Shown here: one piece after another, positions 21,732-39,654 of the stretch
How positions within the stretch are numbered: position 1 is the stretch's first letter
How the letters are laid out: the number at the start of each line of letters is the position of its first letter
Virus genome (UHGV): UHGV-0168748
Source of the DNA: a virus
Length of the DNA stretch: 44,209 nt
Direction: 5' to 3' (one strand)
Program-made: the position numbers and the translations under genes
Notes under the pieces: generated by a model
Told to the model about the DNA's origin: nothing
What the model saw: the letters and a program-made list of their open reading frames with translations, nothing else
Databases searched by the model: none

Positions 21732-21769
21732 GTTAAAGTCTCCTGTCAGTATACATTAAAATAGCGGTA

Positions 21770-21816
21770 AACGTTAAAAAGAAAGACCCTCCTGTATCCC
21801 GAAGGATACAGGAGGG
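21770..21816 (-). terminator. rho-independent terminator
   Basis: CCCTCCTGTATCC-CGAA-GGATACAGGAGGG, U-run on minus strand. Confidence 0.7.
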
Positions 21817-21820
21817 AGTG

Positions 21821-22279
21821 TCAGTACAAACACGTCGTCAAGTATTGATTGTACGAATCGAGTAAGGTCTGACGGTCAGAACGGTAATTCCACAACAAAC
21901 TGTTAAGTTTTCGTGATAAGTCCCGACTAATTTCTTGCGGCGTTAAGGAACTTTCATCGAGTGATAAACGTTCAGGCACAACATGTAATTTCGGTAACTC
22001 ATAACGTTCGCAGAGTGGAGCCAACATCGGAGGGCTCCAGCCACGTTTAGCGGCTTGCTGATTTAAATTTCGTGTGTAGACATAAACGTAATAAGCATAG
22101 GTGTTGACGTCTGCAACATACTCACGCATTGCATCTTTGTCAATTTTCCAATTCACCATGATGGGTGGTGTCGGAGGAGGTTCCAATGGACGATAAGCTG
22201 CCCGTCTGACCTCTTCGCCGTAGCTATTACTCACCAAACCCATGAATACAACCATGATGAATAACAGCGTTTTCATCAA
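21821..22279 (-). CDS. secreted Pro-rich protein (signal peptide)
   Basis: N-terminal MMKTLLFIMVVFMGLVSNSYG then PLEPPPTPP; no lipobox cysteine. Confidence 0.5.
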   Translation of the reverse strand: MMKTLLFIMVVFMGLVSNSYGEEVRRAAYRPLEPPPTPPIMVNWKIDKDAMREYVADVNTYAYYVYVYTRNLNQQAAKRGWSPPMLAPLCERYELPKLHVVPERLSLDESSLTPQEISRDLSRKLNSLLWNYRSDRQTLLDSYNQYLTTCLY

Positions 22280-22783
22280 TCACTCCTTAGCAGACGTTAG
22301 CGTCTTTATAATCTCCTGTCGAAAACTGTTTGCATCTAAACTACCCACAGGTCTCGCCGATGCTTCTTTGCGTTGTTCTGGTGTTGAAGCCGGACTAACA
22401 GGAGTTTCTGGTTTTGTTGGCGTCAGATCCTTCGTCGAACCGCTCTCTTTCGATGGGTTGAACGTGCTTTCATATGGCGGTTTCTGGCCGAGACAAACGA
22501 AGAGTCTGTCGTATAACTTGCCATTATCTTCTTTCAGCTTATCACGATCTTGTTTCATCTCTTGATAAGACTGCGTCATATATGCGTCATGAGACTGCAC
22601 CGAAACGAGTGCGTGAAATTGTTGCACATACGCGTAGGAGACGAAGCCCGAATATGATAACAAGATCGTGATGATTAAAGTCATTATCTTGCTTGCTCTT
22701 GATACGTTTTCTCCTTCTCCTGGTTTAAATGCTTCCATTAACATCTGAAGGAAGAACGGAAGCACTTTAAGAAATGAACCCAT
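22280..22783 (-). CDS. membrane protein with one TM helix, periplasmic coiled coil and Pro/Ser/Thr-rich tail
   Basis: TM helix IMTLIITILLSYSGFVSYAYV followed by charged heptad-like region. Confidence 0.5.
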   Translation of the reverse strand: MGSFLKVLPFFLQMLMEAFKPGEGENVSRASKIMTLIITILLSYSGFVSYAYVQQFHALVSVQSHDAYMTQSYQEMKQDRDKLKEDNGKLYDRLFVCLGQKPPYESTFNPSKESGSTKDLTPTKPETPVSPASTPEQRKEASARPVGSLDANSFRQEIIKTLTSAKE

Positions 22784-22808
22784 TGCTCACCTCGGAGTAT
22801 TTTTAATT

Positions 22809-24182
22809 ATGTTAGACTTACAAGGTTTTATTCAGATACCGGCTCTGTTTGACAATCAGGACGGCGTCACCGCTCCGGTGGGCGAGCTGTCTGATTTGAC
22901 CCTCTCGTACGCGAAGAGTAAACAGACGTTTACTAAAGCCAACTTGCAAGTGCAATTGGTGACATTTACGTCTAAACGAGAAAAACAGACGGTTGTTGTA
23001 CCAGCCGAGTTTTCTGATCATATTCTAACCGTTTCTCAATGGATTTACCAGCAAGCGATCTTGGGGAATCTGAGAAATGACGAGCTTGAATTCCAGCGCC
23101 TGTTATTAGGCCAATTCCAATCAACCATTTCCGGTGTTCAATCTGGTGCAATGATCCAGACTAACGGAAACTGGTTCCCACGTTGGGTTAGCTGGAAGTT
23201 TGAAGCAACAGCAGAACAAGTACAAGATGCAACTGATGTAAATAACCAAATCATCGTTTGGTTCTCGGATGAAGACTTCGACCAAGACTACACAGGTTTT
23301 GAAATCGAGGTACAAATGCCGATTTCACCAATCGACACATTCTTATCGACCAAGTCCGTCGTTGAAAAGGCAATGGAAGGGTTTAACCTTACCGAACACC
23401 ATAAGAAAATCAACGAGTTAATGGCGGGTTTTCCATATACCGCCATTCAAACTAACTACTATACTTGGCACGATCAAGAAAACTACGAGTCCACGCTGGT
23501 AGTTCCAATGTCGGTTATTATCTACGGACGCGCAGGAAAAAACCCAACGAAAATAAAACAGGCATTGCGAGAACACATTCTCGCTAACTCCAGTTTTACC
23601 GTTCCGATTGGGGTAAAAGTATTTCCTGAAATTTTCACCACGACGAAATTTACAATTGTTCCTGGGTGGAAAATTCGTGGAATACCCAATGAGGAAGATG
23701 TGGCGGCACTTTATTCCCCCATCCTTCCATATGATTTCTGGGTCAAAGCCATTACACGGTTTGGGGAATGGTCAGATCAGACGGTGACAGAAAGAAATAC
23801 TAATACAATTAGTAAACCTACAACGGATGTAACCGATCTACCGACGGTTTATAAATCACTAAACTGTGTCGTCATTAGTGGTCCTGAGAATGACACGCGT
23901 AAAGCAACGTTGCATGAAACTATCCCGGATTATGCGTTAATTGCGACGACTAACCCGGATATTGCCCGTATGTCGAAAACCACGACTGAATGGTTGGCAT
24001 TATTCTTCCAAGCGTTAATTGCCGCAGAAGAGTACCATCCGTATCAGACTAGTTTGGATGTGGTAAAATTGGTCGATGAAGCTGACCCTGATAACTACTT
24101 CTGGGTGTTTGAATACGACAACGTAGAATACCGTATCCTGTCTCGGAAAGCGAAATGGTACACCGAGTTAGACGAGGAGTAA
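22809..24182 (+). CDS. hypothetical protein (457 aa)
   Basis: Track ORF with GGAG RBS; function not recognised. Confidence 0.6.
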   Translation: MLDLQGFIQIPALFDNQDGVTAPVGELSDLTLSYAKSKQTFTKANLQVQLVTFTSKREKQTVVVPAEFSDHILTVSQWIYQQAILGNLRNDELEFQRLLLGQFQSTISGVQSGAMIQTNGNWFPRWVSWKFEATAEQVQDATDVNNQIIVWFSDEDFDQDYTGFEIEVQMPISPIDTFLSTKSVVEKAMEGFNLTEHHKKINELMAGFPYTAIQTNYYTWHDQENYESTLVVPMSVIIYGRAGKNPTKIKQALREHILANSSFTVPIGVKVFPEIFTTTKFTIVPGWKIRGIPNEEDVAALYSPILPYDFWVKAITRFGEWSDQTVTERNTNTISKPTTDVTDLPTVYKSLNCVVISGPENDTRKATLHETIPDYALIATTNPDIARMSKTTTEWLALFFQALIAAEEYHPYQTSLDVVKLVDEADPDNYFWVFEYDNVEYRILSRKAKWYTELDEE

Positions 24183-26381: not shown

Positions 26382-26891
26382 TTAGAAGAACGGTTGGTTT
26401 GGAATAACCGCGTATTCCAGAATGAACATGTGTTCAGGGGCGTCAGTTTTACGCCAGACTTTGTGTGTTGCTACGAGTTTTTCCAGAATCGTTAAGAAGC
26501 TACGTTGGCAGTAGGTGTTTTCGCCAAGTAACAGATTCTGAAGTTCTACAGTAGCATCCATATACGCTTGCTTAAAGACCAACCCACGGTTATACTGACC
26601 CGTATAGTTCCAGAGCAACACTTTACCTTCTTCGGTTTCTTTTACCGTTGGCCGTAGACCACAAATCCAGAGCAGTGCTAAGTTTACGTTCCAATCAAAC
26701 TCTTGCTCATTCTCGGGATCATCGCCGAAGGCAGTAGGCAAAGCATCGTAAAATTCGTGCTTCTCAGCGAAATCTTCATCCGATTTAATCTCGTCTTCGA
26801 TACTGCTTCGGACGATAGCGTAAACGTCTTTCGCGGTTAGTTGTGCGGCTTTTGTAATGCCTTTATACCAATCGGTTACAACGATGCTCAA
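26382..26891 (-). CDS. hypothetical protein
   Basis: 169-aa track ORF. Confidence 0.55.
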   Translation of the reverse strand: MSIVVTDWYKGITKAAQLTAKDVYAIVRSSIEDEIKSDEDFAEKHEFYDALPTAFGDDPENEQEFDWNVNLALLWICGLRPTVKETEEGKVLLWNYTGQYNRGLVFKQAYMDATVELQNLLLGENTYCQRSFLTILEKLVATHKVWRKTDAPEHMFILEYAVIPNQPFF

Positions 26892-27613
26892 AGGGCAACT
26901 CCTCTATTGATTGGAAAACTCGTGTTTATCGTATCCCAAATTCTACTGACTTCCGCCAATTGAATCTGACGTGGTGACTTCTTCGCAAACGCAAGCTGAC
27001 GTGGAGCCGAGCCCACAGCAGCAGGTACATCGATTTTCGCACTGTAAAATGCTGCGTCTTTCATAAACCCTGCCATTTCTCGTTGTGCTGCTCGAGATTT
27101 GCTTTTGATTCGTGCGTGTGCACCACTTTCACCCCAGTGGTAAGCTAACGCAACTTCAGCCATGGTGGGCTTGCGTTTGAGTCGTTTAGTTAACCCCTTT
27201 TCAAGATGCTTAATATACGCGGCAGCCAGCAAAACAGCATTACGCGGATTGTACAAATCGGCGTTCTGACTAAGACCTAATTCTTTTCCGTAAAGCTTTA
27301 GCAAATTACGTTTGGTACTCGGAACCATCTGTACCAGGCTGTGTGCTCTTGAGCTTTTATTGTAAGCTTTAGGATCAAAACGCGATTCACGGTAAATCAG
27401 CGTAACCATCAATTTAGGATCAACGCCTTGCTTTCGGGAGATTTCCACAATTAAAGGACTGACCTTTTCGAATCGATGTTGGATTTGTGCAAACTCACGA
27501 TGATGCTTAGATTGTGGCGTTGACGTTGACGCCTGTGCGTTAAACGCGAAAAGTGTTACCAGTAAAAGAAAGAAGATACGAAACATTTTGCTTCTCCAGT
27601 TGGATTTATACAT
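26888..27613 (-). CDS. lytic transglycosylase (SLT domain) with signal peptide
   Basis: Signal-like MFRIFFLLLVTLFAFNAQA; SLT motifs YRESRFDP, SLVQMVP, AAAYI. Confidence 0.6.
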   Translation of the reverse strand: MYKSNWRSKMFRIFFLLLVTLFAFNAQASTSTPQSKHHREFAQIQHRFEKVSPLIVEISRKQGVDPKLMVTLIYRESRFDPKAYNKSSRAHSLVQMVPSTKRNLLKLYGKELGLSQNADLYNPRNAVLLAAAYIKHLEKGLTKRLKRKPTMAEVALAYHWGESGAHARIKSKSRAAQREMAGFMKDAAFYSAKIDVPAAVGSAPRQLAFAKKSPRQIQLAEVSRIWDTINTSFPINRGVAL

Positions 27614-27686
27614 TTCCGTATTCCGTAAGACGAAATGACGGCGCGGACAGCTAATACTCCTTTGTTGTGTGCCCTAATGATAATAT

Positions 27687-28184
27687 CTATTTAAAAGAGT
27701 TTGGAATTAAAGACCGAGCTTCTTGGTACAATGCATCGGGTAGATATAACGTGTGATGTTGTCTCCTTGTTTCAAGTTTGTCGTAAAGCCACAAAAAGAT
27801 TTCTTGTCTTTCCCAAGGACGTAACCAACCATTGGCCATTCCCAGTGGAGGGATAGCAACAGAGGTGTCCAGGTTTTCAACACAATCTGCTAATGCGGTA
27901 ATACCCGCAGTAACATAAGAAACTTGGGACTTTAGACGCCAGTGTGTTTTTGTGGGGAGCAGGATACACTTTTCGTCAGGATAAACGTAGACATTTCCAA
28001 TCCTGATTTCGTTTTCGCGACAACGTTTACGATAATCCTGATAAAGCGTAGGGTAGCGTTCTCGACAGGCTAAAGCAATACCGCGACCCATTGCGCCCAC
28101 GCAGTTAATGGTAACGACCTTATAAGCTTCAGGTGCATTAAAAAGGTCGCCGCCGATCTCAGATTCTTTACGTATCGTTAGCAT
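27687..28184 (-). CDS. TARG1/DarG-like macrodomain protein (predicted ADP-ribose hydrolase)
   Basis: GDLF...NCVGAMGRGIALACRERYP and AIPPLGMANGWL match the TARG1-type GDLF / MGxGIA / IGCGL pattern. Confidence 0.55.
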   Translation of the reverse strand: MLTIRKESEIGGDLFNAPEAYKVVTINCVGAMGRGIALACRERYPTLYQDYRKRCRENEIRIGNVYVYPDEKCILLPTKTHWRLKSQVSYVTAGITALADCVENLDTSVAIPPLGMANGWLRPWERQEIFLWLYDKLETRRQHHTLYLPDALYQEARSLIPNSFK

Positions 28185-28271
28185 AACGATTCACTCGAAG
28201 TTGATGGACGGTGTTAAAACGTGTACCACCGATCGACAACTCAACGAGTATGGCGATATATGTTTTACCCA

Positions 28272-28640
28272 TCATTGATTTTTCTTAATCCACTGTTTGA
28301 CTGCCGTTTCTAAACCTTCGTGCTGTAGACCCAGGCGTTGCATAGCCAACGCTAAGTTGAGTGTATGAACAACCTGTTCACGGAACTGATGATCGTTCAT
28401 GCGGTCCCAGACTTTCTCTACAGCAATATTGTGCTTCCAAAGCAGATAAGCTTCACGACATGATGCACGACGAACTAAGCTGGGTTTAACAAAAGGTAGT
28501 TCGATTTCAGGTAAGTAGCCCAACATCTTAACTAAACGTGTGACTTGTGTGTTACCAAAATCGCCGCATTGATAACAAATTTGTAGAATGTCAAACTCAT
28601 CCAGTGGTAGACCGTAAACTGACGGATTCTCTGTGAACAT
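28272..28640 (-). CDS. hypothetical protein
   Basis: 122-aa track ORF; overlaps the end of 28597-28842 in another frame. Confidence 0.45.
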   Translation of the reverse strand: MFTENPSVYGLPLDEFDILQICYQCGDFGNTQVTRLVKMLGYLPEIELPFVKPSLVRRASCREAYLLWKHNIAVEKVWDRMNDHQFREQVVHTLNLALAMQRLGLQHEGLETAVKQWIKKNQ

Positions 28641-28842
28641 TCATATTCTCCTCAGGCTCGAAATGTGTTTCGGGTGGCAACGTTCCTAAAGCCCCTTGGA
28701 TAGAAGCTGTCAGTGAAGGTTTACCAAAACAAACCTTACCGATTGTTCCTACGTTGGGATGTTGTAAGAACGCTTTGGCGCGTTCGTATTCTTTCCAACA
28801 AATACTCGTATCCAAACCACCCACTCCGTACGATTTTAACAT
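28597..28842 (-). CDS. hypothetical protein, possibly N-terminal part of a split gene
   Basis: 81-aa track ORF overlapping the start of 28272-28640 by 44 nt. Confidence 0.35.
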   Translation of the reverse strand: MLKSYGVGGLDTSICWKEYERAKAFLQHPNVGTIGKVCFGKPSLTASIQGALGTLPPETHFEPEENMNVHRESVSLRSTTG

Positions 28843-28908
28843 AAATAGCTCTCCTGACGTAAATTTCTCACACTCATAGTGAGGAACGCCAAGAGAGCTT
28901 TTATTATT

Positions 28909-29352
28909 TTAGAATGATTTGCTAAAATCGACCCACTCACGATCGCGTGAGTAAACCGCTTGATAACCGCGTCGGATGAAATATTCTTTTGCTTCTTTGC
29001 ACTTCGCATACATGCCAACAACGATCTCGCTGAAAGCTTCATCGGCTGCGATTGCTTTAAAAATCTCTTTCATTACGCCACGCTGTCGATAATCCGGCAA
29101 CACATACAGTGAACGTATCTTGAGGGAACCATTACGATTCCGGTAACTGCAATAACCTACTGCCACACCGTCCAGATACACCAGAACTACGCAGTTACCC
29201 TCGATCAGCTGCCGTGCATTTAACTTCGGCACGGCCATTTTGATTTTTAGTAACGTAGCTTGGTGGTCTAAGTAACGGTAGTGTAATTTAAGTAAGTCAC
29301 TTGCTTGTTGCTCACCGACTTTAGAGGATGCGTTCAATAAATAAATTTCCAT
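28909..29352 (-). CDS. GNAT-family N-acetyltransferase
   Basis: GNAT motif A-like YVLPDYRQRGVMKEIFKA; start moved to ATG 29352 with AAGG RBS. Confidence 0.5.
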   Translation of the reverse strand: MEIYLLNASSKVGEQQASDLLKLHYRYLDHQATLLKIKMAVPKLNARQLIEGNCVVLVYLDGVAVGYCSYRNRNGSLKIRSLYVLPDYRQRGVMKEIFKAIAADEAFSEIVVGMYAKCKEAKEYFIRRGYQAVYSRDREWVDFSKSF

Positions 29353-29385
29353 TTGCAAACCTTAGAGACGCAAAAAAGTAAAAAG

Positions 29386-29514
29386 TTAAAACCAACGCGC
29401 AATGACGAATGCTGCGGCGGCTAATATGGCGGCGGTAATTAGCATCCCGCCCCATGTAAGCTCCGCATCGTATAATGCAGAGATCGCCGCATTCGTAGTA
29501 TTTATCGAGGTCAT
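29386..29514 (-). CDS. small membrane peptide (42 aa), not in ORF track
   Basis: Hand-translated MTSINTTNAAISALYDAELTWGGMLITAAILAAAAFVIARWF; AGGAACAG RBS. Confidence 0.4.
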   Translation of the reverse strand: MTSINTTNAAISALYDAELTWGGMLITAAILAAAAFVIARWF

Positions 29515-29561
29515 CTTTTCTGTTCCTGTTAGTACCCTCCTTACAGAGGGTACGTTCTGGA

Positions 29562-29672
29562 TTATTTGAATGTCGAACCTTCGAACGCCCAGCCGTGTCG
29601 TTTAATTAACCAGTTTAAACCTTTACCGATCAACCACAACGCACCTAGCGTTAGCAGAACCCCTTCAATCAT
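29562..29672 (-). CDS. small membrane peptide (36 aa), not in ORF track
   Basis: Hand-translated MIEGVLLTLGALWLIGKGLNWLIKRHGWAFEGSTFK; strong AGGAGAGGG RBS. Confidence 0.45.
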   Translation of the reverse strand: MIEGVLLTLGALWLIGKGLNWLIKRHGWAFEGSTFK

Positions 29673-29683
29673 AATTCCCTCTC

Positions 29684-29869
29684 CTAATTCCGCCACTCGC
29701 ATTCGCGTTGACGCCAAATCGAACCCCAGAATAGTTTAATCGAATACGATGAAACTACCCATAAAATCATTACCACGCAAAACATGACGTAAAGTATTGC
29801 CAAAATGACCATAAAGCCAAATCCCGCCGCGCTCATCGAACGACGGAACCAATCAGTTTGCATAAACAA
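29684..29869 (-). CDS. small membrane protein (61 aa)
   Basis: Track ORF with hydrophobic core FGFMVILAILYVMFCVVMILWVV; GAGGGAG upstream. Confidence 0.4.
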   Translation of the reverse strand: MFMQTDWFRRSMSAAGFGFMVILAILYVMFCVVMILWVVSSYSIKLFWGSIWRQRECEWRN

Positions 29870-32357
29870 TTTTTACTCCCTCGTTATACACCGCAGGTAA
29901 TGTCACCCCTTCCGGTTCAATGACACAGTACGATGCTTCGTTAAGTTTAGAATGGACTTCAGCTTCGTGGGAGACCACCAGTAACTGCGAGAACTCCCCT
30001 GAGTTTGCTAACGTTTTAATAAAACCAACCAGGTTATTACGGTGTTCTTCGTCCATACCCTCTGAGGGTTCATCCAATAGCAAAGGAAACTGATGTAATT
30101 TCAACGCTTTATACGCAGTCAGTCTGAACATCAGATTGAATATAGCACGTTGTGCCTTAGACCCTTTACGCACATCAGGAACGGGTTCAGGATGTGTTTT
30201 TAGTTGGACAGGAAAAGTATAATCCAAATCACCGTCGGTGAGATCACAAGGCATAACTCGCATGGGGTACGTCCAGACTTGTTCGATATAGCGCGTCATT
30301 AACTCTGTGATTCTGACGATAGCATTGTAAAAATACTTTCTGAGTACACCTTTTTCTGGCGAGAACGCCTGAATCATCAATTTGTTATTAAACTGCTGGG
30401 CTTGTAAATCCGCAAGTTCGCGTTCCAACGTATTGAGCTGATTCAGTTCACTTTCCATTTGACGATAACGCTCACGTGCTGTCGTAAACGCATCCAGTTT
30501 CCCTTCTCGTGCCCGTAAGAGTTCTTCGACAACTGTGTTTGTCAAAGTAACCTTAACGTCATTCTCTAACCGTTCGAATAACGCGCTAAAATCGTCTATA
30601 GCACGTTTAACGCTCTCTAGATAGGTAAGTGTCGTATTAGCTAACTCGTGCTCTCTACGACGCACTGAGAGCGTTTCTGTGGCTTTACCTAAACGCGATT
30701 GTTGGAAAGCAATTTTCTGTTGTAAAGCACCATCGACGTTACCCACAGCAGCTACCGCATCTTGCCATTCTTTTTCTGCCTTCACTAACCGTTGACGGGT
30801 TTCATGATATTCAATAGCAGAATACAGCTCACTGTCAAAAGCCGCGCAGAGACTTCCGAACTGTTCGCGTGATTCTGTAAAGACATTACGTTCTTGTAGA
30901 CACTTAAAGAACATGCTTAAAACCGGGTCCTTTGAGTACGTCAACACGATTTCACGAACCTGACGCATATACGTTACATCAGATTCCAGTTCGACACGAT
31001 CGCGTAATATACTGTCTAACTGTGTTTGAAGCTCCGTACGTTGTTGCTGTTGGCCTCTAATCGAGGTTTCAAGTTCAGACAAAGAACGCGTAACCCCAGG
31101 TCGAAATTTAAACCGACATTGCGGGCAATCTACTTCTGCTGTTTCCAGATAGTGATTTCGTTCGTGGTTCAAGTTTTGTAAAACATTCTCTACGCGCTGG
31201 AGTCTATCTCGCAATCCTGCGGTCTTCTGATCCATCACCAGTAGACGTTCTTCCAAAACGTTGAGCTTTTCGGTTGAATGAATGGCGTCCAGTGTTGTTC
31301 CCAGTCGTTGGCCCCAAACGCGTGCATCGGTTGCAGCACGTAGCTGGTCTAAATTCGCACTCTCACTAAACAGTCCAGGAAAGAGATGCTCGGTGTCCCA
31401 TTTGGTAAGCACTTCACGTAAACGTGCGAGAGTGTTCTTGAGACCCTCGTGATTGCGCATCAGGTAATCCTGTCGCGTTGACTCGTCCATCAATAACGAC
31501 AGATCTTTATTCAACATTGATACTTCCGTTTCTGCTGAAACGACAGCTTCGCGTGCTGTGGCTTCATTGTGTCGTGCGTTCAGTATCTGTTCGTCGGTAG
31601 GCAAACCACCACGATGTTGTAATATTGCGTCGATAGTTGGACCTAAGCCGTTTAATAACGCCTGGATTGATTCGATAGTAACGCCACGATTTAAACCCGG
31701 TAGCTGTTCGATTTGTCGGTTCAGTTCGCGTAAATCCGATTCCAAGCCTTTTAATCTTACCGCTAACTGTTGACGTTCTTCTTCATTTTCAATAACACGT
31801 GTTCGTAACTCTGCGATCTTACGACTGGTAATTTCAATGCCACCGTTTAAGACGGTGAGGTTTTTCCGCAATCTCTGATAGAACCCTAGCGCGTAAGTAA
31901 GGTCAGAGGTACTTAAACGGTAAAACCATTTACGACGTAATTCCGTTCCCGCGTCCGTTAACAACACCTCACCGTTTAACAATTCTTTAATTTCTTTCGT
32001 AATACCAGTGATTTCTTCAACGCGTGAATTGTAAACCTTTGCGTTACCTTGCTCGACAATCTTCGTTCCCGTAGTGAGATTCTCAATATCGCAAACCAAC
32101 GAGTTGCCTTTACGGGCAACTTTGAAACGGTAACGTTGATCGCCGACTAAACAATAATTCGTGTAAGAACCCCCATCCCTGAATTCTGTTTTAGCCGGAG
32201 CTAAGGGCAAAAATACGGACAGTAAACTGGTCTTCCCACAACCGTTCCCACCCAGGATAATCGTTGTCGGTGACTGGATAGTGAAATCGAACGTTTCAAT
32301 TTCGTGCAATCCCATCCCCGTAAAACCTTTGAGTACAATACGTTCAACTTTTAGCAT
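29853..32357 (-). CDS. Rad50/SbcC-like SMC-family ATPase with CxxC zinc hook
   Basis: Walker A GGNGCGKTSLL, long coiled coil with central CPQC, Walker B LLLDEPSEGMD, H-loop VVSHE; start moved to ATG 32357 with GGAGGTG RBS. Confidence 0.7.
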   Translation of the reverse strand: MLKVERIVLKGFTGMGLHEIETFDFTIQSPTTIILGGNGCGKTSLLSVFLPLAPAKTEFRDGGSYTNYCLVGDQRYRFKVARKGNSLVCDIENLTTGTKIVEQGNAKVYNSRVEEITGITKEIKELLNGEVLLTDAGTELRRKWFYRLSTSDLTYALGFYQRLRKNLTVLNGGIEITSRKIAELRTRVIENEEERQQLAVRLKGLESDLRELNRQIEQLPGLNRGVTIESIQALLNGLGPTIDAILQHRGGLPTDEQILNARHNEATAREAVVSAETEVSMLNKDLSLLMDESTRQDYLMRNHEGLKNTLARLREVLTKWDTEHLFPGLFSESANLDQLRAATDARVWGQRLGTTLDAIHSTEKLNVLEERLLVMDQKTAGLRDRLQRVENVLQNLNHERNHYLETAEVDCPQCRFKFRPGVTRSLSELETSIRGQQQQRTELQTQLDSILRDRVELESDVTYMRQVREIVLTYSKDPVLSMFFKCLQERNVFTESREQFGSLCAAFDSELYSAIEYHETRQRLVKAEKEWQDAVAAVGNVDGALQQKIAFQQSRLGKATETLSVRRREHELANTTLTYLESVKRAIDDFSALFERLENDVKVTLTNTVVEELLRAREGKLDAFTTARERYRQMESELNQLNTLERELADLQAQQFNNKLMIQAFSPEKGVLRKYFYNAIVRITELMTRYIEQVWTYPMRVMPCDLTDGDLDYTFPVQLKTHPEPVPDVRKGSKAQRAIFNLMFRLTAYKALKLHQFPLLLDEPSEGMDEEHRNNLVGFIKTLANSGEFSQLLVVSHEAEVHSKLNEASYCVIEPEGVTLPAVYNEGVKIVYAN

Positions 32358-32388
32358 ACCCACCTCCATAATCACGGAGTGTGGTGTA

Positions 32389-32435
32389 AAAAGAAAAAAA
32401 AATAAAAACGAATGGGAGAACCCGAAGGTTCTCCC
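32389..32435 (-). terminator. rho-independent terminator
   Basis: GGGAGAACC-CGAA-GGTTCTCCC followed on minus strand by a long U-run. Confidence 0.75.
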
Positions 32436-32440
32436 AAGTG

Positions 32441-33049
32441 TTATTTGGTATACGGTTGATATCCCATTGAAATCCAGTCATCAATGTTCTTTGAGTTTTC
32501 TACCCAAACCCGACCTGCTTCAGAAGCCATCATCTCCATTGTTAGTGTGCAAATCAGATTGGTTACTGCCGCACATTTCCCTGGCGTTACGCCATCCAGA
32601 TAAACCGGATAGAGATACGGGGATTTAATGCTTTGGTACGGATAAGAATAATGGCTACCGACCATCCAACCTTCTTCTACCGGACACAAGTTAAAGGTAC
32701 GGGTTTCAGGAACTTCGCCTTCAGAGATCCAGTTAACAACGTCTGCTTTAATACGACCGTTGTCCACGTAATAGAACACAACACGTTGCGGAATACTGAC
32801 AGTACCCGCTGGGTCGAGAGCTTCCATTGCTTTGAACGGCGTTGTCAGTAAAGTCGTACTGTTCTCGAGCGCGTAAACCAGTTTGTCATACGCCACCGGT
32901 GTTTTACGCTTAAAGTATTCCCGTAAACGCGGGTAAGCTAAGAACCCTTCAACTTCTTCTTCCATCAGATCGATGAATAACGGGGTGTGTGGATGCTGCT
33001 CTGCGTTCAACATGGCTTCAAGAAAACGAACTAGTGTGATTTCGTTCAT
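32441..33049 (-). CDS. hypothetical protein
   Basis: 202-aa track ORF; no metallophosphatase motifs, so not an Mre11/SbcD partner. Confidence 0.55.
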   Translation of the reverse strand: MNEITLVRFLEAMLNAEQHPHTPLFIDLMEEEVEGFLAYPRLREYFKRKTPVAYDKLVYALENSTTLLTTPFKAMEALDPAGTVSIPQRVVFYYVDNGRIKADVVNWISEGEVPETRTFNLCPVEEGWMVGSHYSYPYQSIKSPYLYPVYLDGVTPGKCAAVTNLICTLTMEMMASEAGRVWVENSKNIDDWISMGYQPYTK

Positions 33050-33061
33050 CTGGCATTTCCT

Positions 33062-33097
33062 TTTAAATCAAAAAAGAAACCCCGAACGTGGTCGGGG
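33062..33097 (-). terminator. rho-independent terminator
   Basis: CCCCGA-ACGTGG-TCGGGG, U-run on minus strand. Confidence 0.6.
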
Positions 33098-33106
33098 CCG
33101 GGCTAA

Positions 33107-33583
33107 TTAGAGCCCTAAGTGCGTGAGTGATAAAATAGGCTGGGATTCACCTTTAATCGTTGCGTAGGAGCGGTACATTTCCGCGTTACTTGAAAAGACT
33201 TCGTTAGCAACGATACATTCACCCGTCTCTAAAGAAAGGAGATAAATGTAGTCGCTCCATACACTTTGTACCAATACCCATTCGAGTGCAGTATCGCTTT
33301 CTCGCGTTGTCCGTAAGTAATGGAAATAAGGACGAATTGCGTCAACGGCTGCATTAAATCGGCGGTGATAAATTCGGGTTAAATCGAACGTCCAAATTGT
33401 TTCCAGGTCGACAGGATGTAATGTACGTACTGTGTCGATGATTGTTGACTGGTCGCCTATACGAGCAGCTTCTGCAATACGTAATAGTTTCCAAGCCACT
33501 GTCAGGTTGTGGCGAATCTGTTCAGGTTTGGCGGACAGGTCATGATGAAATTGTGCTGCTTGGTAGACGTTAGACAGTTGCAT
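33107..33583 (-). CDS. hypothetical protein
   Basis: 158-aa track ORF. Confidence 0.55.
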   Translation of the reverse strand: MQLSNVYQAAQFHHDLSAKPEQIRHNLTVAWKLLRIAEAARIGDQSTIIDTVRTLHPVDLETIWTFDLTRIYHRRFNAAVDAIRPYFHYLRTTRESDTALEWVLVQSVWSDYIYLLSLETGECIVANEVFSSNAEMYRSYATIKGESQPILSLTHLGL

Positions 33584-33660
33584 GATAATTCTCCTTTAGG
33601 TATAACAAGTCGTAAAAAGGACCCCGGACGAATCGGAACGTACCGGGGCCAAGACTACAC

Positions 33661-34050
33661 TCAGTAATCTAATTCGATAGCGCCTGCCATCTCACCGCGT
33701 TCTTCGATAACGATTAAGTAACGGTCGCGAGATTTGCTTTTAGCAAGCGATAAGACAACAGTAGGGTCGCACGTTTTCGTAGTGATAGGAAGAACCTCTT
33801 TTGCGACAGAATCAAGTAGGAAATAGTAACCGGCTGGGCACATCGCGCCCCCGTCGGCTTTCACCAGAATGTAGCGCCCATCTGCGCCGACTTCTTGACA
33901 GGTTGTTTCTCCATTCTCACAGACTTCAAAACTGGGTGGATTGTACTGATAATCGTCGTTGTTGTTTGCTGTCAGCAGTAAATCGTTAACCTGGGTAGAA
34001 GCAGTTACGCTCAGAGAGAAGAAGAATGCTAAAGCGCAAATGAAACGCAT
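33661..34050 (-). CDS. small secreted protein (signal peptide)
   Basis: MRFICALAFFFSLSVTAST; several cysteines in mature part. Confidence 0.55.
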   Translation of the reverse strand: MRFICALAFFFSLSVTASTQVNDLLLTANNNDDYQYNPPSFEVCENGETTCQEVGADGRYILVKADGGAMCPAGYYFLLDSVAKEVLPITTKTCDPTVVLSLAKSKSRDRYLIVIEERGEMAGAIELDY

Positions 34051-34060
34051 GAGTTACTCC

Positions 34061-34471
34061 TTAAATTTTAAGTTTATCCATAGCCACAACGATAGATTTT
34101 TCAGAGGTGTCTAATATCCCTACCCACGGCACACCATCTACGACTTGGAAGAACGGTTTGTTATTTCCAGAGCACAGACGCTTGTCGTTGTATTCGAGAC
34201 GTTGGGCTTTCCACGTTTCGAGGTTAAGTACCGACATAGGGCTGTCGTAGCACCAGGCACCGCCTTGCTCAACAACGAATACGTATCTGTTACCTTTGTA
34301 TTTAAACAGATTCTTCGTCTGGCAGTACAAACCATCGATTTCTGTACAGTAGAAATCATCGGTACTGTTGACGTATTTGATACCATCCGGTAATTTTATT
34401 GTTTTTGCTGTCACGTTAGCAGTGAAGAGAACAGCGATCGCAACGAGAAGCGTGTTGATGATATTTTTCAT
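34061..34471 (-). CDS. small secreted protein (signal peptide)
   Basis: MKNIINTLLVAIAVLFTANVTA. Confidence 0.55.
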   Translation of the reverse strand: MKNIINTLLVAIAVLFTANVTAKTIKLPDGIKYVNSTDDFYCTEIDGLYCQTKNLFKYKGNRYVFVVEQGGAWCYDSPMSVLNLETWKAQRLEYNDKRLCSGNNKPFFQVVDGVPWVGILDTSEKSIVVAMDKLKI

Positions 34472-34482
34472 GATAAACGTCC

Positions 34483-34968
34483 TTAGTATTTAGATTGTTC
34501 CGCGTATTTCTTAACCAGATAAGCGAATTCAGCAACACCGATATCACCGAACCAAATCAGGTAACCGGGGTCGATGTTGTAGTAATAACCGACGAGTTCG
34601 TTGGTTTGTGGGTTGTATAACGTTACGATATATTCCCAGCCACAAGCGTTAGCTTTACAGCCACCACTTTCAATCCAGATTTTGTTATTAATGTTTACCG
34701 GGTACATCGCACCGCCGGGGCCATCCATGTAACCTTTAGCACCGAACATACCATTCAATCCTACCGGGTCCAGTGTTTTATCAACAACCGCTTTAAATGA
34801 CTTATCGGTATCGTACACGTCGTTGATGTTTGGACACGCGTTAGGTTGTCCGTCCCATGCGTTGGTGTCGCATGTAAGCGCATCTTTCACTGATGCTGCA
34901 TCAACAGTTGGTGTAACACCGATAAACATGAAAGCCAGAAAGAACATCAGTGTGTGTAAACGTTTCAT
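34483..34968 (-). CDS. small secreted protein, possibly Ivy-like
   Basis: Signal peptide MKRLHTLMFFLAFMFIGVTPTVDA; GGCKANACGW loop resembles the CKPHDCG loop of Ivy lysozyme inhibitors. Confidence 0.5.
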   Translation of the reverse strand: MKRLHTLMFFLAFMFIGVTPTVDAASVKDALTCDTNAWDGQPNACPNINDVYDTDKSFKAVVDKTLDPVGLNGMFGAKGYMDGPGGAMYPVNINNKIWIESGGCKANACGWEYIVTLYNPQTNELVGYYYNIDPGYLIWFGDIGVAEFAYLVKKYAEQSKY

Positions 34969-34986: not shown

Positions 34987-35382
34987 TTATTCAGCAGGGC
35001 GATTTAAAGTAACACGACCGATTAATTCGGCATTATGAAAGAAATCTACAGCGGTATAATTACCAACTGATAACGGGTGAATACTAACCGACATGACTTT
35101 TGGTTGTTCGCAAGCAATATCAGTTAGACGTTGATAGACACGTGCGCCGTTATCGGCAATGATTAGTCCGGTGCATGTACTGTCACGCATCAGGCGGTAC
35201 ACCTCTAGTTTACCGAAGCTCCGCATTAGTGTTGGTGTTTCATCAGGATTAATAATTGGGGAATCTGGTGCTGGGTCGTAGTAGCGGATATCCGATTCAC
35301 CGAAAGCGTACGTACCGGTAATACCGATAGCGCAGAAAATAATGATAGTATAAAGTATAGTTTTAATATTCATTTCACGCAC
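34987..35382 (-). CDS. small secreted protein (signal peptide)
   Basis: MNIKTILYTIIIFCAIGITGTYA. Confidence 0.5.
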   Translation of the reverse strand: MREMNIKTILYTIIIFCAIGITGTYAFGESDIRYYDPAPDSPIINPDETPTLMRSFGKLEVYRLMRDSTCTGLIIADNGARVYQRLTDIACEQPKVMSVSIHPLSVGNYTAVDFFHNAELIGRVTLNRPAE

Positions 35383-35433: not shown

Positions 35434-35904
35434 TTATTGTTCGTATTCGGTGTTCCAGCAAGATTCGAGGAAGTTACCGTCCATCACTTTCTTAACGTTT
35501 TTGGCTGATGGGTTAAAGGTAGCAACCTTTTTCTGGTCGAGGTATAAGTCAAACTCAGTTGCTGTAGAGATTGCTTTTACAAAACTAACCCAAGTATTGT
35601 CGGTATTACGTGTGCCGTCAGGAACTACACCCCAGAACTCTTCACCATCGATAACGAAACTAATGTCGTTATCTTCCGAGTTGGCCACCACATTACCATC
35701 TTTAGAGATAAAGATCTTGTGTGGTAAAATGTTGTTTTCATCTGGATTACCGGTACAGCTAATGGTAATACCCCATCCACCGTTATCGATACCATACTCG
35801 GTTTCACCCATTGCAAAGCCACTACCCCACATGTTCGGAATGGCCTGTGCAGCAGTGGCGCTTACAGTTAAAACGATAGCTAAGAAGATGTTAGACAGTT
35901 TCAT
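35434..35904 (-). CDS. small secreted protein, paralogue of 35942-36397
   Basis: Signal peptide; conserved blocks TISCTGN, SFVIDGEEF, TWVSFVKAI shared with the neighbour. Confidence 0.55.
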   Translation of the reverse strand: MKLSNIFLAIVLTVSATAAQAIPNMWGSGFAMGETEYGIDNGGWGITISCTGNPDENNILPHKIFISKDGNVVANSEDNDISFVIDGEEFWGVVPDGTRNTDNTWVSFVKAISTATEFDLYLDQKKVATFNPSAKNVKKVMDGNFLESCWNTEYEQ

Positions 35905-35941: not shown

Positions 35942-36397
35942 TCAAGGACGGCTATGTCCACAGTTCTTAAAGAAAGTTTCGGGCAGACGCTCACCATCTA
36001 CAATAAAGTTAGCGGCTTCGTTACCGTTGATAGCCACACCGAAGCTTTTTGCATTAGCGATAGCATTAGCGAAGGCAACCCAAGCTTTTTCTGCTTTGTC
36101 GCTGCCGTCAATAGTGGGAATGATATAGTTTTTGCCGTTTACGACAATACTCATTTCGTTGTCTTCGGCATTAGTTGAACCGACCGGTTCACCGTAATAC
36201 CAAACCATGCGACCGTAAAACTTACGATTAGCCGTTGCGGTATCGCAGTTGATAGACAAGCTGTTCCCATTTTCGTCTTCGATTTCGTAAACAGCATTTC
36301 CCGGACTTTGAAGTCCTTCCCAGCTTCCGATTGCGGCGTAAGCGTTATTGAGACCGAAAGTTAAAAGGGTTACTAAGAATGCGATAAAAGTTTTCAT
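35942..36397 (-). CDS. small secreted protein, paralogue of 35434-35904
   Basis: Signal peptide; conserved blocks SINCDTA, SIVVNGKNY, AWVAFANAI. Confidence 0.55.
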   Translation of the reverse strand: MKTFIAFLVTLLTFGLNNAYAAIGSWEGLQSPGNAVYEIEDENGNSLSINCDTATANRKFYGRMVWYYGEPVGSTNAEDNEMSIVVNGKNYIIPTIDGSDKAEKAWVAFANAIANAKSFGVAINGNEAANFIVDGERLPETFFKNCGHSRP

Positions 36398-37119: not shown

Positions 37120-37893
37120 CTATTGATTAAGTTTTACATCTGCAATAAACAGCAACTGTTTACCATGTTGCTGCACTTCTTTCCAACCTAGCTTCATAGC
37201 AGCGTCAACAACATCTATCATGCTGTAACGAGAGATCAACGAGGCTGATTTTGTTCCTGACATTAAGTAGAGCGGCTCATTAGGGCAACGGTCACGGGCG
37301 TCAGGGAGTTCTTGAATGATTGATGATCCTTCAGGTACGTTAACAACACTAATCACGGTAAATGGCCTTTTGTGCGTTAGATAAATACGAAAACCGACAT
37401 GTTTAGACTCATGAAAGATTTTCTTCACGACCGCGTCTTTTAATGTCGTCTGAACTTCGACCCCAGGCAATATCATGGATTTACGGGAAACGAAACAACG
37501 ACTATTTTCGACTGTGGAGAAATAATTACGTATCGGTAAGCTGTTATTGTTATCGCGCAGTCTTTTGCTTAAGAGATCATAATCCATCTCTTTAACTTCT
37601 TCTAACCACAGATGTGCACGTTCAACGTAATACAGGCCAACCGTGTGGTAACTTAATACTTTGCCTGTACTTAGTTGCCAGAGCTTAACGCTGAGTGAGT
37701 CGGGTTTATATCGGCGATATTCCCCACGGGTATGATTGACACGTTGGTAAAGACCTACGTCTTCTGTTGGTGCGGATTCGACGGACCGCAATTGGAGTGT
37801 TCGATTATATTTATCGTCCAGCAACAACGAGGCCAGCGAGCCATTAATCACGTAGTGTTCTGATTCAAAAAGTGCATCTAAATGGATTTTCAT
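37120..37893 (-). CDS. member A of paralogous family with conserved C-terminal tail
   Basis: Ends ...AAMKLGWKEVQQHGKQLLFIADVKLNQ; start moved to ATG 37893 with AAGGA RBS. Confidence 0.55.
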   Translation of the reverse strand: MKIHLDALFESEHYVINGSLASLLLDDKYNRTLQLRSVESAPTEDVGLYQRVNHTRGEYRRYKPDSLSVKLWQLSTGKVLSYHTVGLYYVERAHLWLEEVKEMDYDLLSKRLRDNNNSLPIRNYFSTVENSRCFVSRKSMILPGVEVQTTLKDAVVKKIFHESKHVGFRIYLTHKRPFTVISVVNVPEGSSIIQELPDARDRCPNEPLYLMSGTKSASLISRYSMIDVVDAAMKLGWKEVQQHGKQLLFIADVKLNQ

Positions 37894-37960
37894 TTCTATT
37901 TCCTTCTTAACAAAAGCCGCGACTAAAGCGCGGCAGTTAGAGAAAGTGTATTTTCGTTTA

Positions 37961-39088
37961 TTAAAGGTCAGCAACAAACAACAGCTGACTGCCGTACGAT
38001 TCGACAGATTTCCAACCGTAATCTTTACCGATCGTCGTTAAATGACCGGTATTTAACTTTTTGTCAATCGACCGCAATTGCATCATTAGCGTATTGGATT
38101 CTGCCGCATCAAGTAACAACGCAGGTTCTTTTTCAGTGCGATCATCCGCTTTCGGGAAGAAACTGTAATATTGACTTTTGGGTAGATCGATTGACAACGT
38201 ATAATTTTTCTTTGTAAGGAATAACGCCATCCCTTCGAAATTGCAATCGAAACGATATTCCCAACCCGCTTCTGCTAAAACGTCTTTTAGCATTTCCATG
38301 ACTTTAAGCTGGTTAACGCTAGGCAGTCGGTAAATTGCAAGACCACTTGGGAAAATGCGTATACCGTCGACGACACTATCGGTGGTTTCGTCAATAAGTT
38401 CAGGATAGCGTTGTGAGAAAATGTGATCGCTCTTGCTTTTCTCTTCGACGTCACGAATGAATTGTGCTAATTCTTCTTTCAATGTACTTGTCATTTCTTT
38501 CTCCACTACTTTACGTTCAATACACACTGCGTAATACATTACGTCGTTAAATTCGGTTACGAGCCTTAGTCCTGTGTCGATGAACTCGTACGGAAACCCA
38601 CCGTTAGGGGTGCGGCGTGTAGGTACGTTTTGGGATATTTCTTGAATTACGTGAATCTTCTCAATTTCAAATCCACAGAGTTCTTCCAGAAAAGTCATAT
38701 CCTGCTGGTCGAGTAATTTCACACCCTCGTAAGGCAGCCGCCTGATTTTATACTCCAGTAATGAGAATTTCTCCGATGGGTAAACACGATACATTAAACG
38801 TTGATTTGATTTTAACTCACGGACGTAAAGTTTGTCGTAGGGTAACGACTCATTTGCGTATAGAGTGAATTGAAAATCCTCAATGCGTTCGTCGAAAACA
38901 CAAATATCCACGGGTGCACAGATTGGTTCTGGCAAAGCGTTAACGGTGCAACCAAAAACGCGCCCGAACAAATCATTTTGCGTAGCACACGGGATATTGA
39001 GTAGTATTTTCGGTACACCTTTCTTGTAATCTTCGAAAAGTAATTCAAGATAGAGTCTATGCGACGGTGAGTTATTGTAGATATGCAT
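37961..39088 (-). CDS. member B of paralogous family with conserved C-terminal tail
   Basis: Ends ...TIGKDYGWKSVESYGSQLLFVADL. Confidence 0.6.
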   Translation of the reverse strand: MHIYNNSPSHRLYLELLFEDYKKGVPKILLNIPCATQNDLFGRVFGCTVNALPEPICAPVDICVFDERIEDFQFTLYANESLPYDKLYVRELKSNQRLMYRVYPSEKFSLLEYKIRRLPYEGVKLLDQQDMTFLEELCGFEIEKIHVIQEISQNVPTRRTPNGGFPYEFIDTGLRLVTEFNDVMYYAVCIERKVVEKEMTSTLKEELAQFIRDVEEKSKSDHIFSQRYPELIDETTDSVVDGIRIFPSGLAIYRLPSVNQLKVMEMLKDVLAEAGWEYRFDCNFEGMALFLTKKNYTLSIDLPKSQYYSFFPKADDRTEKEPALLLDAAESNTLMMQLRSIDKKLNTGHLTTIGKDYGWKSVESYGSQLLFVADL

Positions 39089-39099
39089 GATATCATCCC

Positions 39100-39654
39100 T
39101 TAAACATTATAAGCTAAGAACAACAATTGTTTACCTACTTTACGCACGGTATACCAGCCATGCGCTTTAGCGACAGCGATGAGGGTTTCCCAGTCGTCAG
39201 CATTACAATGTTCTTTCCGAAGTTGTTCAAACAACGCTTCAGCTTCGTCTTGATTTAACAGCTTACCCGGATTGTCTGGCGTGCAATCAGTAGGGCTTGG
39301 AAAGAAGCTATACAGACGCGCTAAGAGAAAATCAACCGAATACTTAACACCTTCCTTATAAACCAACACAGATGTTTTCCCTTCGTGGAAGAAACTGCCT
39401 GTTTTCCAAGCGGTATCTCCCAGTAAGCTTCGAAGGTAAGACGTAAACCCACTTCTGAAAGAGATATCCGTGTTACGTGGAATTCTGCGGAACATCGGTG
39501 TTTCTCCCACCGCTTGTACGGTTACACCCACTACCATCACGTCCGGTGAGATAATGGTATTAGTCAGTACGGTATAAGGACAAGTAAAGTAGTGTTCACC
39601 AACACCCTTTTCAAGAGATTGAACGATTTCATTTTTCAATTTAGCGTGATACAT
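39100..39654 (-). CDS. member C of paralogous family with conserved C-terminal tail
   Basis: Ends ...AVAKAHGWYTVRKVGKQLLFLAYNV. Confidence 0.6.
   Translation of the reverse strand: MYHAKLKNEIVQSLEKGVGEHYFTCPYTVLTNTIISPDVMVVGVTVQAVGETPMFRRIPRNTDISFRSGFTSYLRSLLGDTAWKTGSFFHEGKTSVLVYKEGVKYSVDFLLARLYSFFPSPTDCTPDNPGKLLNQDEAEALFEQLRKEHCNADDWETLIAVAKAHGWYTVRKVGKQLLFLAYNV

Follow-up and report, generated by a model that had tools for sequence, protein, structure and literature searches.

Practically all jumbo phages encode SbcC and SbcD (PMC7824862). In SPN3US, phiKZ and their relatives, the genes of the two subunits are 'drastically separated'; the SbcD of SPN3US is gp27, and its SbcC subunit, gp186, is essential (PMC5105663). 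The two genes are likewise split in pSal-SNUABM-04, as ORF34 and ORF189 (PMC7823757). In phiKZ, orf165 and orf065 belong to the core genes, and their knock-down produces phenotypes (PMC12571901); orf165 tolerates no transposon insertions (bioRxiv 10.1101/2025.11.23.690004).

The DNA analyzed here, referred to as the window, is a stretch of 44,209 nucleotides from the virus genome UHGV-0168748. It belongs to a jumbo phage related to phiKZ, within the SPN3US/Asesino group, and its gene order is collinear with that of Asesino. The host is probably Salmonella or another enterobacterium. The product of the gene at 29853-32357 is very probably the SbcC/Rad50 subunit in a phage-encoded SbcCD complex of the Mre11-Rad50 type, which would process DNA ends and whose SbcD would be encoded far away. 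The following genes are considered:

29853..32357, minus strand: SbcC/Rad50-like ABC ATPase gene (open reading frame, 834 aa from the ATG)
29684..29863, minus strand: gene of a small single-pass membrane protein of 59-61 aa (open reading frame), positional orthologue of SPN3US gp187
32441..33049, minus strand: gene of a 202-aa protein upstream of the SbcC-like gene, matching phrog_9964 (E = 6.5e-49)
12800-14296: UvsX-like recombinase

A GGAGG Shine-Dalgarno sequence lies 5-6 nt upstream of the ATG of the SbcC-like gene, and the resulting N-terminus, MLKVERI, is found in all orthologues of the protein. This start is therefore favored over the alternative in-frame GTG at 32375. A megablast search of positions 29000-34000 against GenBank phages returned no DNA match, and the gene was thus identified via protein searches. 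Among the named phage proteins of GenBank, none exceeds 71% identity to this protein, and an identical protein is on record in the NCBI assembly GCA_020703495.1 and in several metagenome/read-archive assemblies.

Comparison with the described proteins identifies SPN3US gp186, phiKZ gp165 (ORF165) and Asesino gp207 as orthologues of the SbcC-like protein. The orthology is full-length (~834-837 aa), and the motifs, including a CPxC hook, are shared. Amino acid identity amounts to 70.9% with Asesino gp207 and 58-60% with the SPN3US group (58-71% over the SPN3US/Asesino group), and to 21-25% with phiKZ-type phages. The locus also resembles the SPN3US gp186 group in its flanking genes, including the small downstream membrane-protein gene, and in the separation of SbcD in relatives. 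There is no difference of substance from these three proteins, of which it represents a sequence variant.

Predicted fold and ATPase head of the SbcC-like protein

The 834-aa protein matches phrog_77, 'SbcC-like subunit of palindrome specific endonuclease', over residues 1-833 (E = 1.7e-90, 306 bits). Its best NCBIfam match is Rad50, at 42.9 bits and below the cutoff of 847, and Pfam SMC_N reaches 34.6 bits, below the cutoff of 40; these cutoffs are tuned to cellular proteins, whereas phrog_77 is a viral family model. Similarity below the cutoffs of curated models distinguishes the protein from its T4 and E. coli counterparts. Precomputed PF02463 matches exist for most of its homologues.

The AlphaFold2 model (mean pLDDT of 83) displays a bipartite head, the halves of which are separated by two long helical arms, residues 154-405 and 426-664, that form an antiparallel coiled coil with pLDDT values mostly between 70 and 90. 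The CPQC motif is located in a short beta-hairpin that connects helices 365-405 and 426-474, and no SMC hinge domain occupies that place. A Foldseek search of the PDB revealed Rad50 of C. thermophilum in the MRN complex as the best match (E = 3.3e-19), with E. coli SbcC among the matches; the alignments to Rad50/SMC chains are full-length, with 8-15% identity to the Rad50 and SbcC chains. When the family profile was compared with PDB sequences, P. furiosus Rad50 came out on top (E = 4.9e-10). The best structural and sequence matches in the PDB are thus the Rad50 proteins of C. thermophilum (7zr1/5da9) and P. furiosus (3qkt). The phrog_77 match and the Rad50 fold bear out the identity as a Rad50/SbcC-like zinc-hook ATPase that the preliminary description had proposed, and its reading of an 834-aa frame with Walker A, coiled coil, CPQC, Walker B and H-loop agrees with the translation and the model.

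The motifs were read from the translation, all on the minus strand:

aa 36-43, nt 32229-32252: Walker A/P-loop GGNGCGKT, with G36, N38, G39, G41 and K42 invariant in the family
aa 411-414, nt 31116-31127: CPQC zinc-hook motif at the apex of the coiled coil
aa 732-737, nt 30147-30164: divergent ABC signature GSKAQR, with S733 and Q736 invariant
aa 758-763, nt 30069-30086: Walker B PLLLDE, with P758, L759, L761, D762 and E763 invariant
nt 30048-30068: D-loop PSEGMDE, just after Walker B
aa 796-797, nt 29967-29972: Ser-His of the H-loop, with S796 and H797 invariant

In an alignment of six distant family members, C411, P412 and C414 are invariant. Walker A, these three hook residues, S733/Q736, D762/E763 and S796/H797 are kept in members that share only 21-22% identity overall; given this invariance, the motif set is no chance pattern. 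In the AlphaFold2 model, S733 caps helix 734-751, as expected of a signature serine, strand 759-762 lies in Walker B, and strand 792-795 is followed by the Ser-His of the H-loop.

The signature was described at the outset as GSKAQR rather than LSGG, which is correct, and as degenerate, which is not supported. Variants in the jumbo-phage SbcC family (GSKAQ, GSSSQ, CSDGQ and GSDSQ) share the pattern S-x-x-Q, a family trait, and HMMER pairs GSKAQR with CSAGQK of C. thermophilum Rad50, that is, with the CSAGQ signature of eukaryotic Rad50. In two family alignments, the N-terminal lobe shows no family-invariant glutamine suited to a Q-loop, and the alignment of the N-lobe profile to Rad50 in the PDB extends only to about residue 122, short of the Q-loop region. 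A register set by hand, LNGE against RQGQ of P. furiosus Rad50, scored z ~0 against shuffles and was dropped.

The bipartite ABC head, the antiparallel coiled coil and the CxxC hook are shared with T4 gp46/gp47 and E. coli SbcC/SbcD. As in T4, the phage family possesses a five-motif Mre11-type partner, and SbcC is essential in the phage. [quoted passage not shown] With respect to eukaryotic and archaeal Rad50, the protein differs by its low identity and by having no identifiable conserved Q-loop glutamine.

Location of the SbcD gene

The absence of a phosphoesterase beside the SbcC-like gene, noted in the preliminary description, is borne out and extends throughout the 44-kb window by tblastn, phmmer, HMM and regular-expression searches. 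With SPN3US SbcD (gp27) as the query, the best values in the window were E = 6.5 (tblastn) and E = 0.8 (phmmer), and an HMM of jumbo-phage SbcDs reached E = 4.4 at best over all six frames. A control HMM built from distant phiKZ-type SbcDs only, which recovers the SbcDs of the SPN3US group at ~1e-55, gave a best score of 0.98 in the window, and regular expressions for Mre11 motifs I-III found none there. The Pfam Metallophos model was rejected as a detector because it is insensitive, matching one of four bona fide jumbo-phage SbcDs (E = 0.003) and missing the other three, and the family HMM with its positive control was used instead. Metallophos barely detects these proteins, and finding them requires profiles specific to the family, such as PHROG 100.

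In relatives, SbcD is found far from SbcC, at a distance of 87-148 kb in Asesino, SPN3US, Noxifer and the two closest IMG/VR genomes. The SbcD of Asesino (gp44) lies at 21.7-22.9 kb and its SbcC (gp207) at 170.9-173.4 kb; the corresponding positions are 21.0-22.2 kb (gp27) and ~168.9-171.4 kb in SPN3US, and 46.9-48.1 kb and 153.7-156.2 kb in Noxifer. In the two IMG/VR genomes, UViG_3300045988_113438 and UViG_3300029126_000001, the SbcC is 96% identical to that of the window at the amino acid level, and SbcD is located on the same contig, 131 kb and 87 kb away, respectively. The SbcD of these two relatives matches phrog_100 (E = 1.6e-60), and all five Mre11 motifs are present in the SbcDs of all five genomes. 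Every complete relative examined, including both 96%-identical ones, carries SbcD on the contig of its SbcC.

These data agree with the earlier suggestion that the partner is encoded elsewhere, as seen on the contigs of relatives. The comparison with T4 and T5 had made the missing neighbor appear anomalous, which was not borne out: a separation of ~90-150 kb in relatives departs from the operon of E. coli and the near-adjacency in T4 (PMC5105663), and is a published trait of the family (PMC5105663, PMC7823757).

Neighboring genes and alternative readings

The small membrane-protein gene starts, with its ATG, before the SbcC-like gene ends, so that the two share 11 nt (overlap ATGCAAACTGA), and translational coupling of the two genes is therefore likely. 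The maximum Kyte-Doolittle value of the small protein over 19 residues is 3.09. A gene occupies the matching position in Asesino (gp208), SPN3US (L018) and loci L009, L013 and L015, and the one in SPN3US has been noted (PMC5105663). The small protein may be functionally linked to SbcC.

The 202-aa neighbor, raised in the preliminary description as a possible divergent phosphoesterase, has no Pfam, NCBIfam or PADLOC match. A word-indexed search yielded only three close homologues, and the structure predicted from a 4-sequence alignment has a mean pLDDT of 43.7, too low for use. Its hhalign probability against the SbcD profile is 0.15%. No Asp, His or Asn is invariant among six orthologues, which leaves it without a conserved metal ligand, and the motifs D-x-H, G-D, G-N-H-D/E, H and G-H are not conserved. 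The protein is neither a phosphoesterase nor a family-wide neighbor of SbcC.

The preliminary description also offered a divergent SMC-like protein with other partners. In this form, an ATPase uncoupled from SbcD that works with, for example, the 202-aa protein or the small membrane protein, we consider the reading very unlikely. It would account for the lack of a nuclease adjoining the gene, for the 11-nt overlap at the SbcC stop codon, for the divergent signature without a visible conserved Q-loop glutamine, and for the position that the 202-aa and membrane-protein genes hold on either side of SbcC throughout the SPN3US/Asesino subgroup. However, the 202-aa gene is confined to that subgroup; in Noxifer, PhiEaH1 and Pseudomonas phage D6, the gene directly upstream of SbcC is instead a divergently transcribed one, annotated as baseplate assembly protein. 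The initiator Met is the sole invariant residue among orthologues of the small protein, and the SbcC-like protein keeps the residues that characterize the hook and the catalytic sites of Rad50. The SbcC-like protein matches 289 phage records and SbcD 290, with a nearly identical genus breakdown, and this approximately one-to-one co-occurrence in ~290 phage genomes speaks against other partners replacing SbcD, which is itself compatible with any accessory partner of SbcC. A loss of SbcD in this phage, leaving SbcC an orphan, is highly improbable. SbcD is indeed absent from the 44-kb window and was seen on the genomes of relatives, but the genome is roughly 223 kb long, of which the window covers about a fifth only, and synteny with Asesino places SbcD far outside it. 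The closest complete relatives (96% amino acid identity) carry SbcD, and many contigs of 220-228 kb in Salmonella, E. coli and Shigella assemblies harbor members of an SbcD cluster with 93% identity to the SbcDs of these relatives. Such assemblies are the type of source of ABDPLV010000003.1 (223,321 bp), a 99.5%-identical contig encoding an SbcC protein that matches the window's exactly.

LmuB itself is a relative of Rad50, and a cross-match of the SbcC-like protein to the LmuB model is thus expected. Such matches were obtained with the PADLOC LmuB model (E = 2e-19, residues 2-803) and with Lamassu LmuACB chains in Foldseek (E ~3e-12), and would be in line with a Lamassu LmuB-like or other defense/counter-defense SMC protein rather than a repair/recombination SbcC. 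We give this reading next to no probability and rejected the LmuB identity: the LmuB match scores 68 bits against 306 bits for the PHROG SbcC-like family, the Foldseek match to Rad50 is stronger than that to Lamassu, and general Pfam/PHROG scans revealed no LmuA/LmuC-like genes among the neighbors. Moreover, the gene is core and essential in lytic jumbo phages (PMC5105663, PMC12571901, bioRxiv 10.1101/2025.11.23.690004).

Proposed mechanism and significance

In the SbcCD mechanism that we propose, a Zn2+ ion coordinated by the CPQC hooks would join two SbcC protomers at their apices, and the ABC heads would engage around ATP by means of Walker A and B, the S-x-x-Q signature and the H-loop. The nuclease, SbcD/Mre11, would be bound by the heads as a dimer; it is the presumed orthologue of SPN3US gp27/phiKZ gp65, and its gene would lie ~90-150 kb from that of SbcC, within a conserved block of its own. 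The complex may then resect or open DNA ends for recombination-dependent replication, working together with the UvsX-like recombinase of 12800-14296. We infer zinc binding and ATPase activity for SbcC, and nuclease activity, a physical complex and a role in recombination/replication for SbcCD; a literature search found no biochemical evidence for an SbcC-SbcD complex in phiKZ-like/nucleus-forming phages.

A more speculative proposal, to which we assign a low probability, is that phiKZ/SPN3US-type SbcC has an unorthodox ATPase site, its signature being pared down to S-x-x-Q and a conserved Q-loop glutamine being absent, and that it is made along with the translationally coupled membrane micro-protein (29684-29863). 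If true, SbcC could undergo a modified ATP cycle and be anchored to a membrane or the phage-nucleus boundary instead of acting as part of a free canonical SbcCD, and the distance between the two genes would reflect a separate regulation or localization of the subunits.

The SbcC-like gene, its essentiality and the separation of SbcD have been known for SPN3US/phiKZ since 2016 (PMC5105663), and later functional-genomics screens agree. The gene is thus of little weight as a discovery, and its value lies in annotation. phiKZ-like jumbo phages routinely scatter functionally linked genes, and a gene without an adjacent partner is therefore no evidence that the partner is missing.

Architecture and fold of the SbcC-like protein

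The ORF and its motifs are listed below (minus strand; motifs from the translation of the ORF).

29853-32357, minus strand, SbcC-like ORF, 834 aa
aa 36-43, Walker A, GGNGCGKT
aa 411-414, hook CPQC, at the nearly exact middle of the 834-aa protein
aa 732-737, signature, GSKAQR
aa 758-763, Walker B, PLLLDE
D-loop, PSEGMDE
aa 796-797, H-loop, SH

The start was placed at the ATG at 32357 and not at the in-frame GTG at 32375, because the former is preceded by a GGAGG Shine-Dalgarno sequence and yields the N-terminus MLKVERI found in all orthologues compared. The Walker A, CPQC, GSKAQR, Walker B and H-loop motifs of the preliminary description were all recovered where it had placed them. An alignment of the window protein with members that share just 21-22% identity with it (those of Noxifer, PhiEaH1 and Pseudomonas phage D6) revealed invariant columns in Walker A (G36, N38, G39, G41, K42), the hook (C411, P412, C414), the signature (S733, Q736), Walker B (P758, L759, L761, D762, E763) and the H-loop (S796, H797).

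The proposed Rad50/SbcC-type identity is confirmed by profile searches and by the predicted fold. The match to PHROG 77 ('SbcC-like subunit of palindrome specific endonuclease') spans residues 1-833 (E = 1.7e-90), the best solved relative found with a profile of six family members is P. furiosus Rad50 (E = 4.9e-10), and Rad50 is the top NCBIfam match. The protein is strongly diverged with respect to cellular Rad50/SbcC members: it stays under the Pfam SMC_N cutoff and falls far short of the NCBIfam equivalog cutoffs. An AlphaFold2 model computed from 24 homologues (mean pLDDT 83, with no residues below 50) displays a beta-rich N-lobe, two helical arms (154-405 and 426-664) and a C-lobe, with CPQC on a short hairpin at the apex between the arms. 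S733 caps a helix in the C-lobe, where Walker B forms a strand and the SH of the H-loop comes directly after a strand. In a Foldseek search of the PDB, the top match was C. thermophilum Rad50 of the MRN complex (E = 3.3e-19), followed by Smc5/6, condensin, MukB, Lamassu and Wadjet SMC proteins; matches also included human Rad50 and E. coli SbcC.

The signature had been regarded as degenerate, a view that the family does not bear out. The motif varies among members (GSKAQ, GSSSQ, CSDGQ, GSDSQ), and in the HMMER alignment the window GSKAQR falls on CSAGQK, the signature of C. thermophilum Rad50. Because its Ser and Gln are invariant and it aligns with the Rad50 motif, GSKAQR represents a family-wide S-x-x-Q variant and not a decayed site. 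Family alignments contain no invariant N-lobe Gln as a Q-loop candidate; within aa 100-160 (window about 31878-32057, minus strand) only G129, R141 and D152 are invariant, and neither profile search nor pairwise alignment (z about 0) fixed the Q-loop register relative to Rad50.

Neighbouring genes and the location of SbcD

Two ORFs flank the SbcC-like gene.

32441-33049, minus strand, upstream neighbour, 202 aa, PHROG 9964, function unassigned
29684-29863, minus strand, small downstream ORF, 59 aa (61 aa from an upstream TTG)

The 202-aa gene adjoins SbcC in the SPN3US/Asesino subgroup only; its place upstream of SbcC is taken in Noxifer, PhiEaH1 and Pseudomonas phage D6 by a gene that is transcribed divergently and annotated as a baseplate assembly protein. 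The structure model of the 202-aa protein was unusable (pLDDT 43.7). The downstream ORF, which from its ATG on overlaps the end of the SbcC-like gene by 11 nt (ATGCAAACTGA), encodes one very hydrophobic helix and has no PHROG match. It keeps its place in the SPN3US/Asesino subgroup with a barely conserved sequence, and its counterpart, SPN3US gp187, was already mentioned by Thomas et al. (PMC5105663). One unlikely reading is that the S-x-x-Q signature, an N-lobe with no invariant Q-loop Gln and a coupled membrane micro-protein are marks of an SbcCD whose mechanism is modified in these phages.

A divergent phosphoesterase adjacent to SbcC was considered and rejected. Among six orthologues of the 202-aa neighbour, not one Asp, His or Asn is invariant, and the protein thus lacks a binuclear metallophosphoesterase site; its comparison with the SbcD profile by hhalign gave a probability of 0.15%. 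The preliminary description was also correct that no phosphoesterase adjoins SbcC, and the rest of the window contains none either. SPN3US SbcD (gp27) found no match in it (best E = 6.5 by tblastn and 0.8 by phmmer), and an HMM of 11 jumbo-phage SbcDs run against six reading frames gave a best E of 4.4. A control HMM built solely from the distant SbcDs of phiKZ, Noxifer, RAY and FLC4-3B detected those of the SPN3US group at about 1e-55, but its best value in the window was 0.98.

Two explanations had been offered for the solitary gene: a partner encoded elsewhere, or a divergent SMC-like protein working with other partners. The genomes of relatives, including two whose SbcC is 96% identical, support the former.

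Positions of SbcD and SbcC in related genomes
Asesino: SbcD gp44, 21,690-22,910; SbcC gp207, 170,896-173,406
SPN3US: SbcD gp27, 21,020-22,168; SbcC, about 168.9-171.4 kb
Noxifer: SbcD, 46.9-48.1 kb; SbcC, 153.7-156.2 kb
phiKZ: SbcD gp65, 55.1-56.2 kb
UViG_3300045988_113438 (SbcC 96% identical): SbcD, about 19.1-20.3 kb; SbcC, about 150.9-153.4 kb
UViG_3300029126_000001 (SbcC 96% identical): SbcD, about 143.1-144.2 kb; SbcC, about 53.7-56.2 kb

The SbcDs of relatives match PHROG 100 (E = 1.6e-60) and retain all five Mre11 motifs in invariant form (D34/H36, G69/D70, G109-T-P-x-H113-D114, H192/G193 and H224/H226). The reading with other partners is unsupported, as the two proteins co-occur in the phage database (289 records for the SbcC-like protein, 290 for SbcD) with a nearly equal genus breakdown.

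In the genomes examined, SbcD resides in a conserved three-gene block (phiKZ gp64-65-66, SPN3US gp26-27-28, Noxifer 57-58-59, RAY 237-238-239), with gp64 and gp66 as its upstream and downstream flanks in phiKZ. The flanking proteins shared by SPN3US, Noxifer, phiKZ, RAY and FLC4-3B (about 182-224 aa upstream, about 266-278 aa downstream) have no assigned function. They are more plausible candidates for conserved nuclease accessory factors than the SbcC neighbours. Pfam Metallophos (PF00149) matched one of four SbcD loci (L024, L021, L006, L007), namely Asesino gp44 (E = 0.003); since it misses SbcDs with five intact Mre11 motifs, Pfam-based annotation under-calls SbcD in these phages. GenBank OQ383623 names the SbcC gene 'nuclease SbcCD subunit D'.

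Phage lineage and accompanying genes

Megablast found no GenBank phage closely similar to the locus at the DNA level. The SbcC-like protein shares 70.9% identity with gp207 of Erwinia phage Asesino, 58-60% with its counterparts in SPN3US-like Salmonella phages and, over its full length, 20-25% with 'SbcC' of phiKZ-type phages (Pseudomonas, Erwinia, Ralstonia, Vibrio, Aeromonas and others); all listed genomes among its 289 matching phage records are jumbo phages of 210-322 kb. Because of these similarities and a gene order collinear with Asesino, the window is assigned by sequence to a phiKZ-related jumbo phage of the SPN3US/Asesino group.

Contig ABDPLV010000003.1 (GCA_020703495.1, 223,321 bp), whose DNA is 99.5% identical to the window over 6.5 kb, carries a gene for exactly this protein, as does a metagenome scaffold 100% identical over the same 6.5 kb. 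The places listed for four SbcD variants do not include this contig. One SbcD variant by itself is recorded on 69 contigs. Homologues of genes near the SbcC-like gene in Salmonella, E. coli and Shigella isolate assemblies suggest an enterobacterial host. Many isolate assemblies of Salmonella enterica, E. coli and Shigella, as well as metagenome and read-archive assemblies, contain near-identical copies of this jumbo phage as contigs of about 220-228 kb, a distribution suggestive of a widespread enterobacterial jumbo phage travelling with isolates, as a carrier state or contamination.

Two further gene groups lie on the minus strand.

33661-34050, 34061-34471, 34483-34968, 34987-35382, 35434-35904, 35942-36397, minus strand, six consecutive small ORFs (129-161 aa)
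37120-37977, 37961-39088, 39100-39654, minus strand, three adjacent ORFs with weak mutual similarity (blastp E = 7e-9 and 1e-12)

All six small ORFs begin with a signal-peptide-like hydrophobic stretch, and several contain Cys; all-against-all blastp found no mutual similarity among five of them (35434-35904 aside). The group resembles a cassette for secreted or periplasmic proteins, function unassigned. The trio, whose 375-aa member has no PHROG match at E <= 1e-5, looks like a small tandem paralogue family. Further identifiable genes, listed with 3589-4623, 12800-14296, 19474-20994 and 26888-29358 (minus strand), include a thymidylate synthase (phrog_160), an RNase H-domain protein (Pfam, 8e-21) and a UvsX-like recombinase (phrog_97, E = 9e-56); an SLT transglycosylase/endolysin, a macro-domain protein and a GNAT acetyltransferase are also present.

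Published knowledge and proposed role

The separation of the SbcC and SbcD genes is already known, and for SPN3US, phiKZ and relatives it has been described as drastic (PMC5105663). SPN3US gp186 was termed the SbcC subunit (homologue of phiKZ ORF165) and gp27 SbcD (PMC5105663), and pSal-SNUABM-04 has the same split (PMC7823757). The solitary SbcC of the window, correctly observed, is thus a published family trait. According to Iyer et al. (2021), SbcC and SbcD are practically universal in jumbo phages (PMC7824862). Essentiality is taken from the literature: Thomas et al. (2016) obtained an amber mutant of SPN3US gene 186 and demonstrated that this gene is essential (PMC5105663), a phiKZ antisense screen places orf165 ('SbcC-like') and orf065 ('Nuclease') among core genes with knock-down phenotypes (PMC12571901), and a transposon screen recovered no orf165 insertions (bioRxiv 10.1101/2025.11.23.690004).

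By analogy with Mre11-Rad50/SbcCD, SbcC protomers would dimerise via the Zn-hook, ATP would drive engagement of their heads, and the protein would bind an SbcD dimer. Such a complex may act with the UvsX-like recombinase (12800-14296) and process DNA ends for use in recombination-dependent replication.
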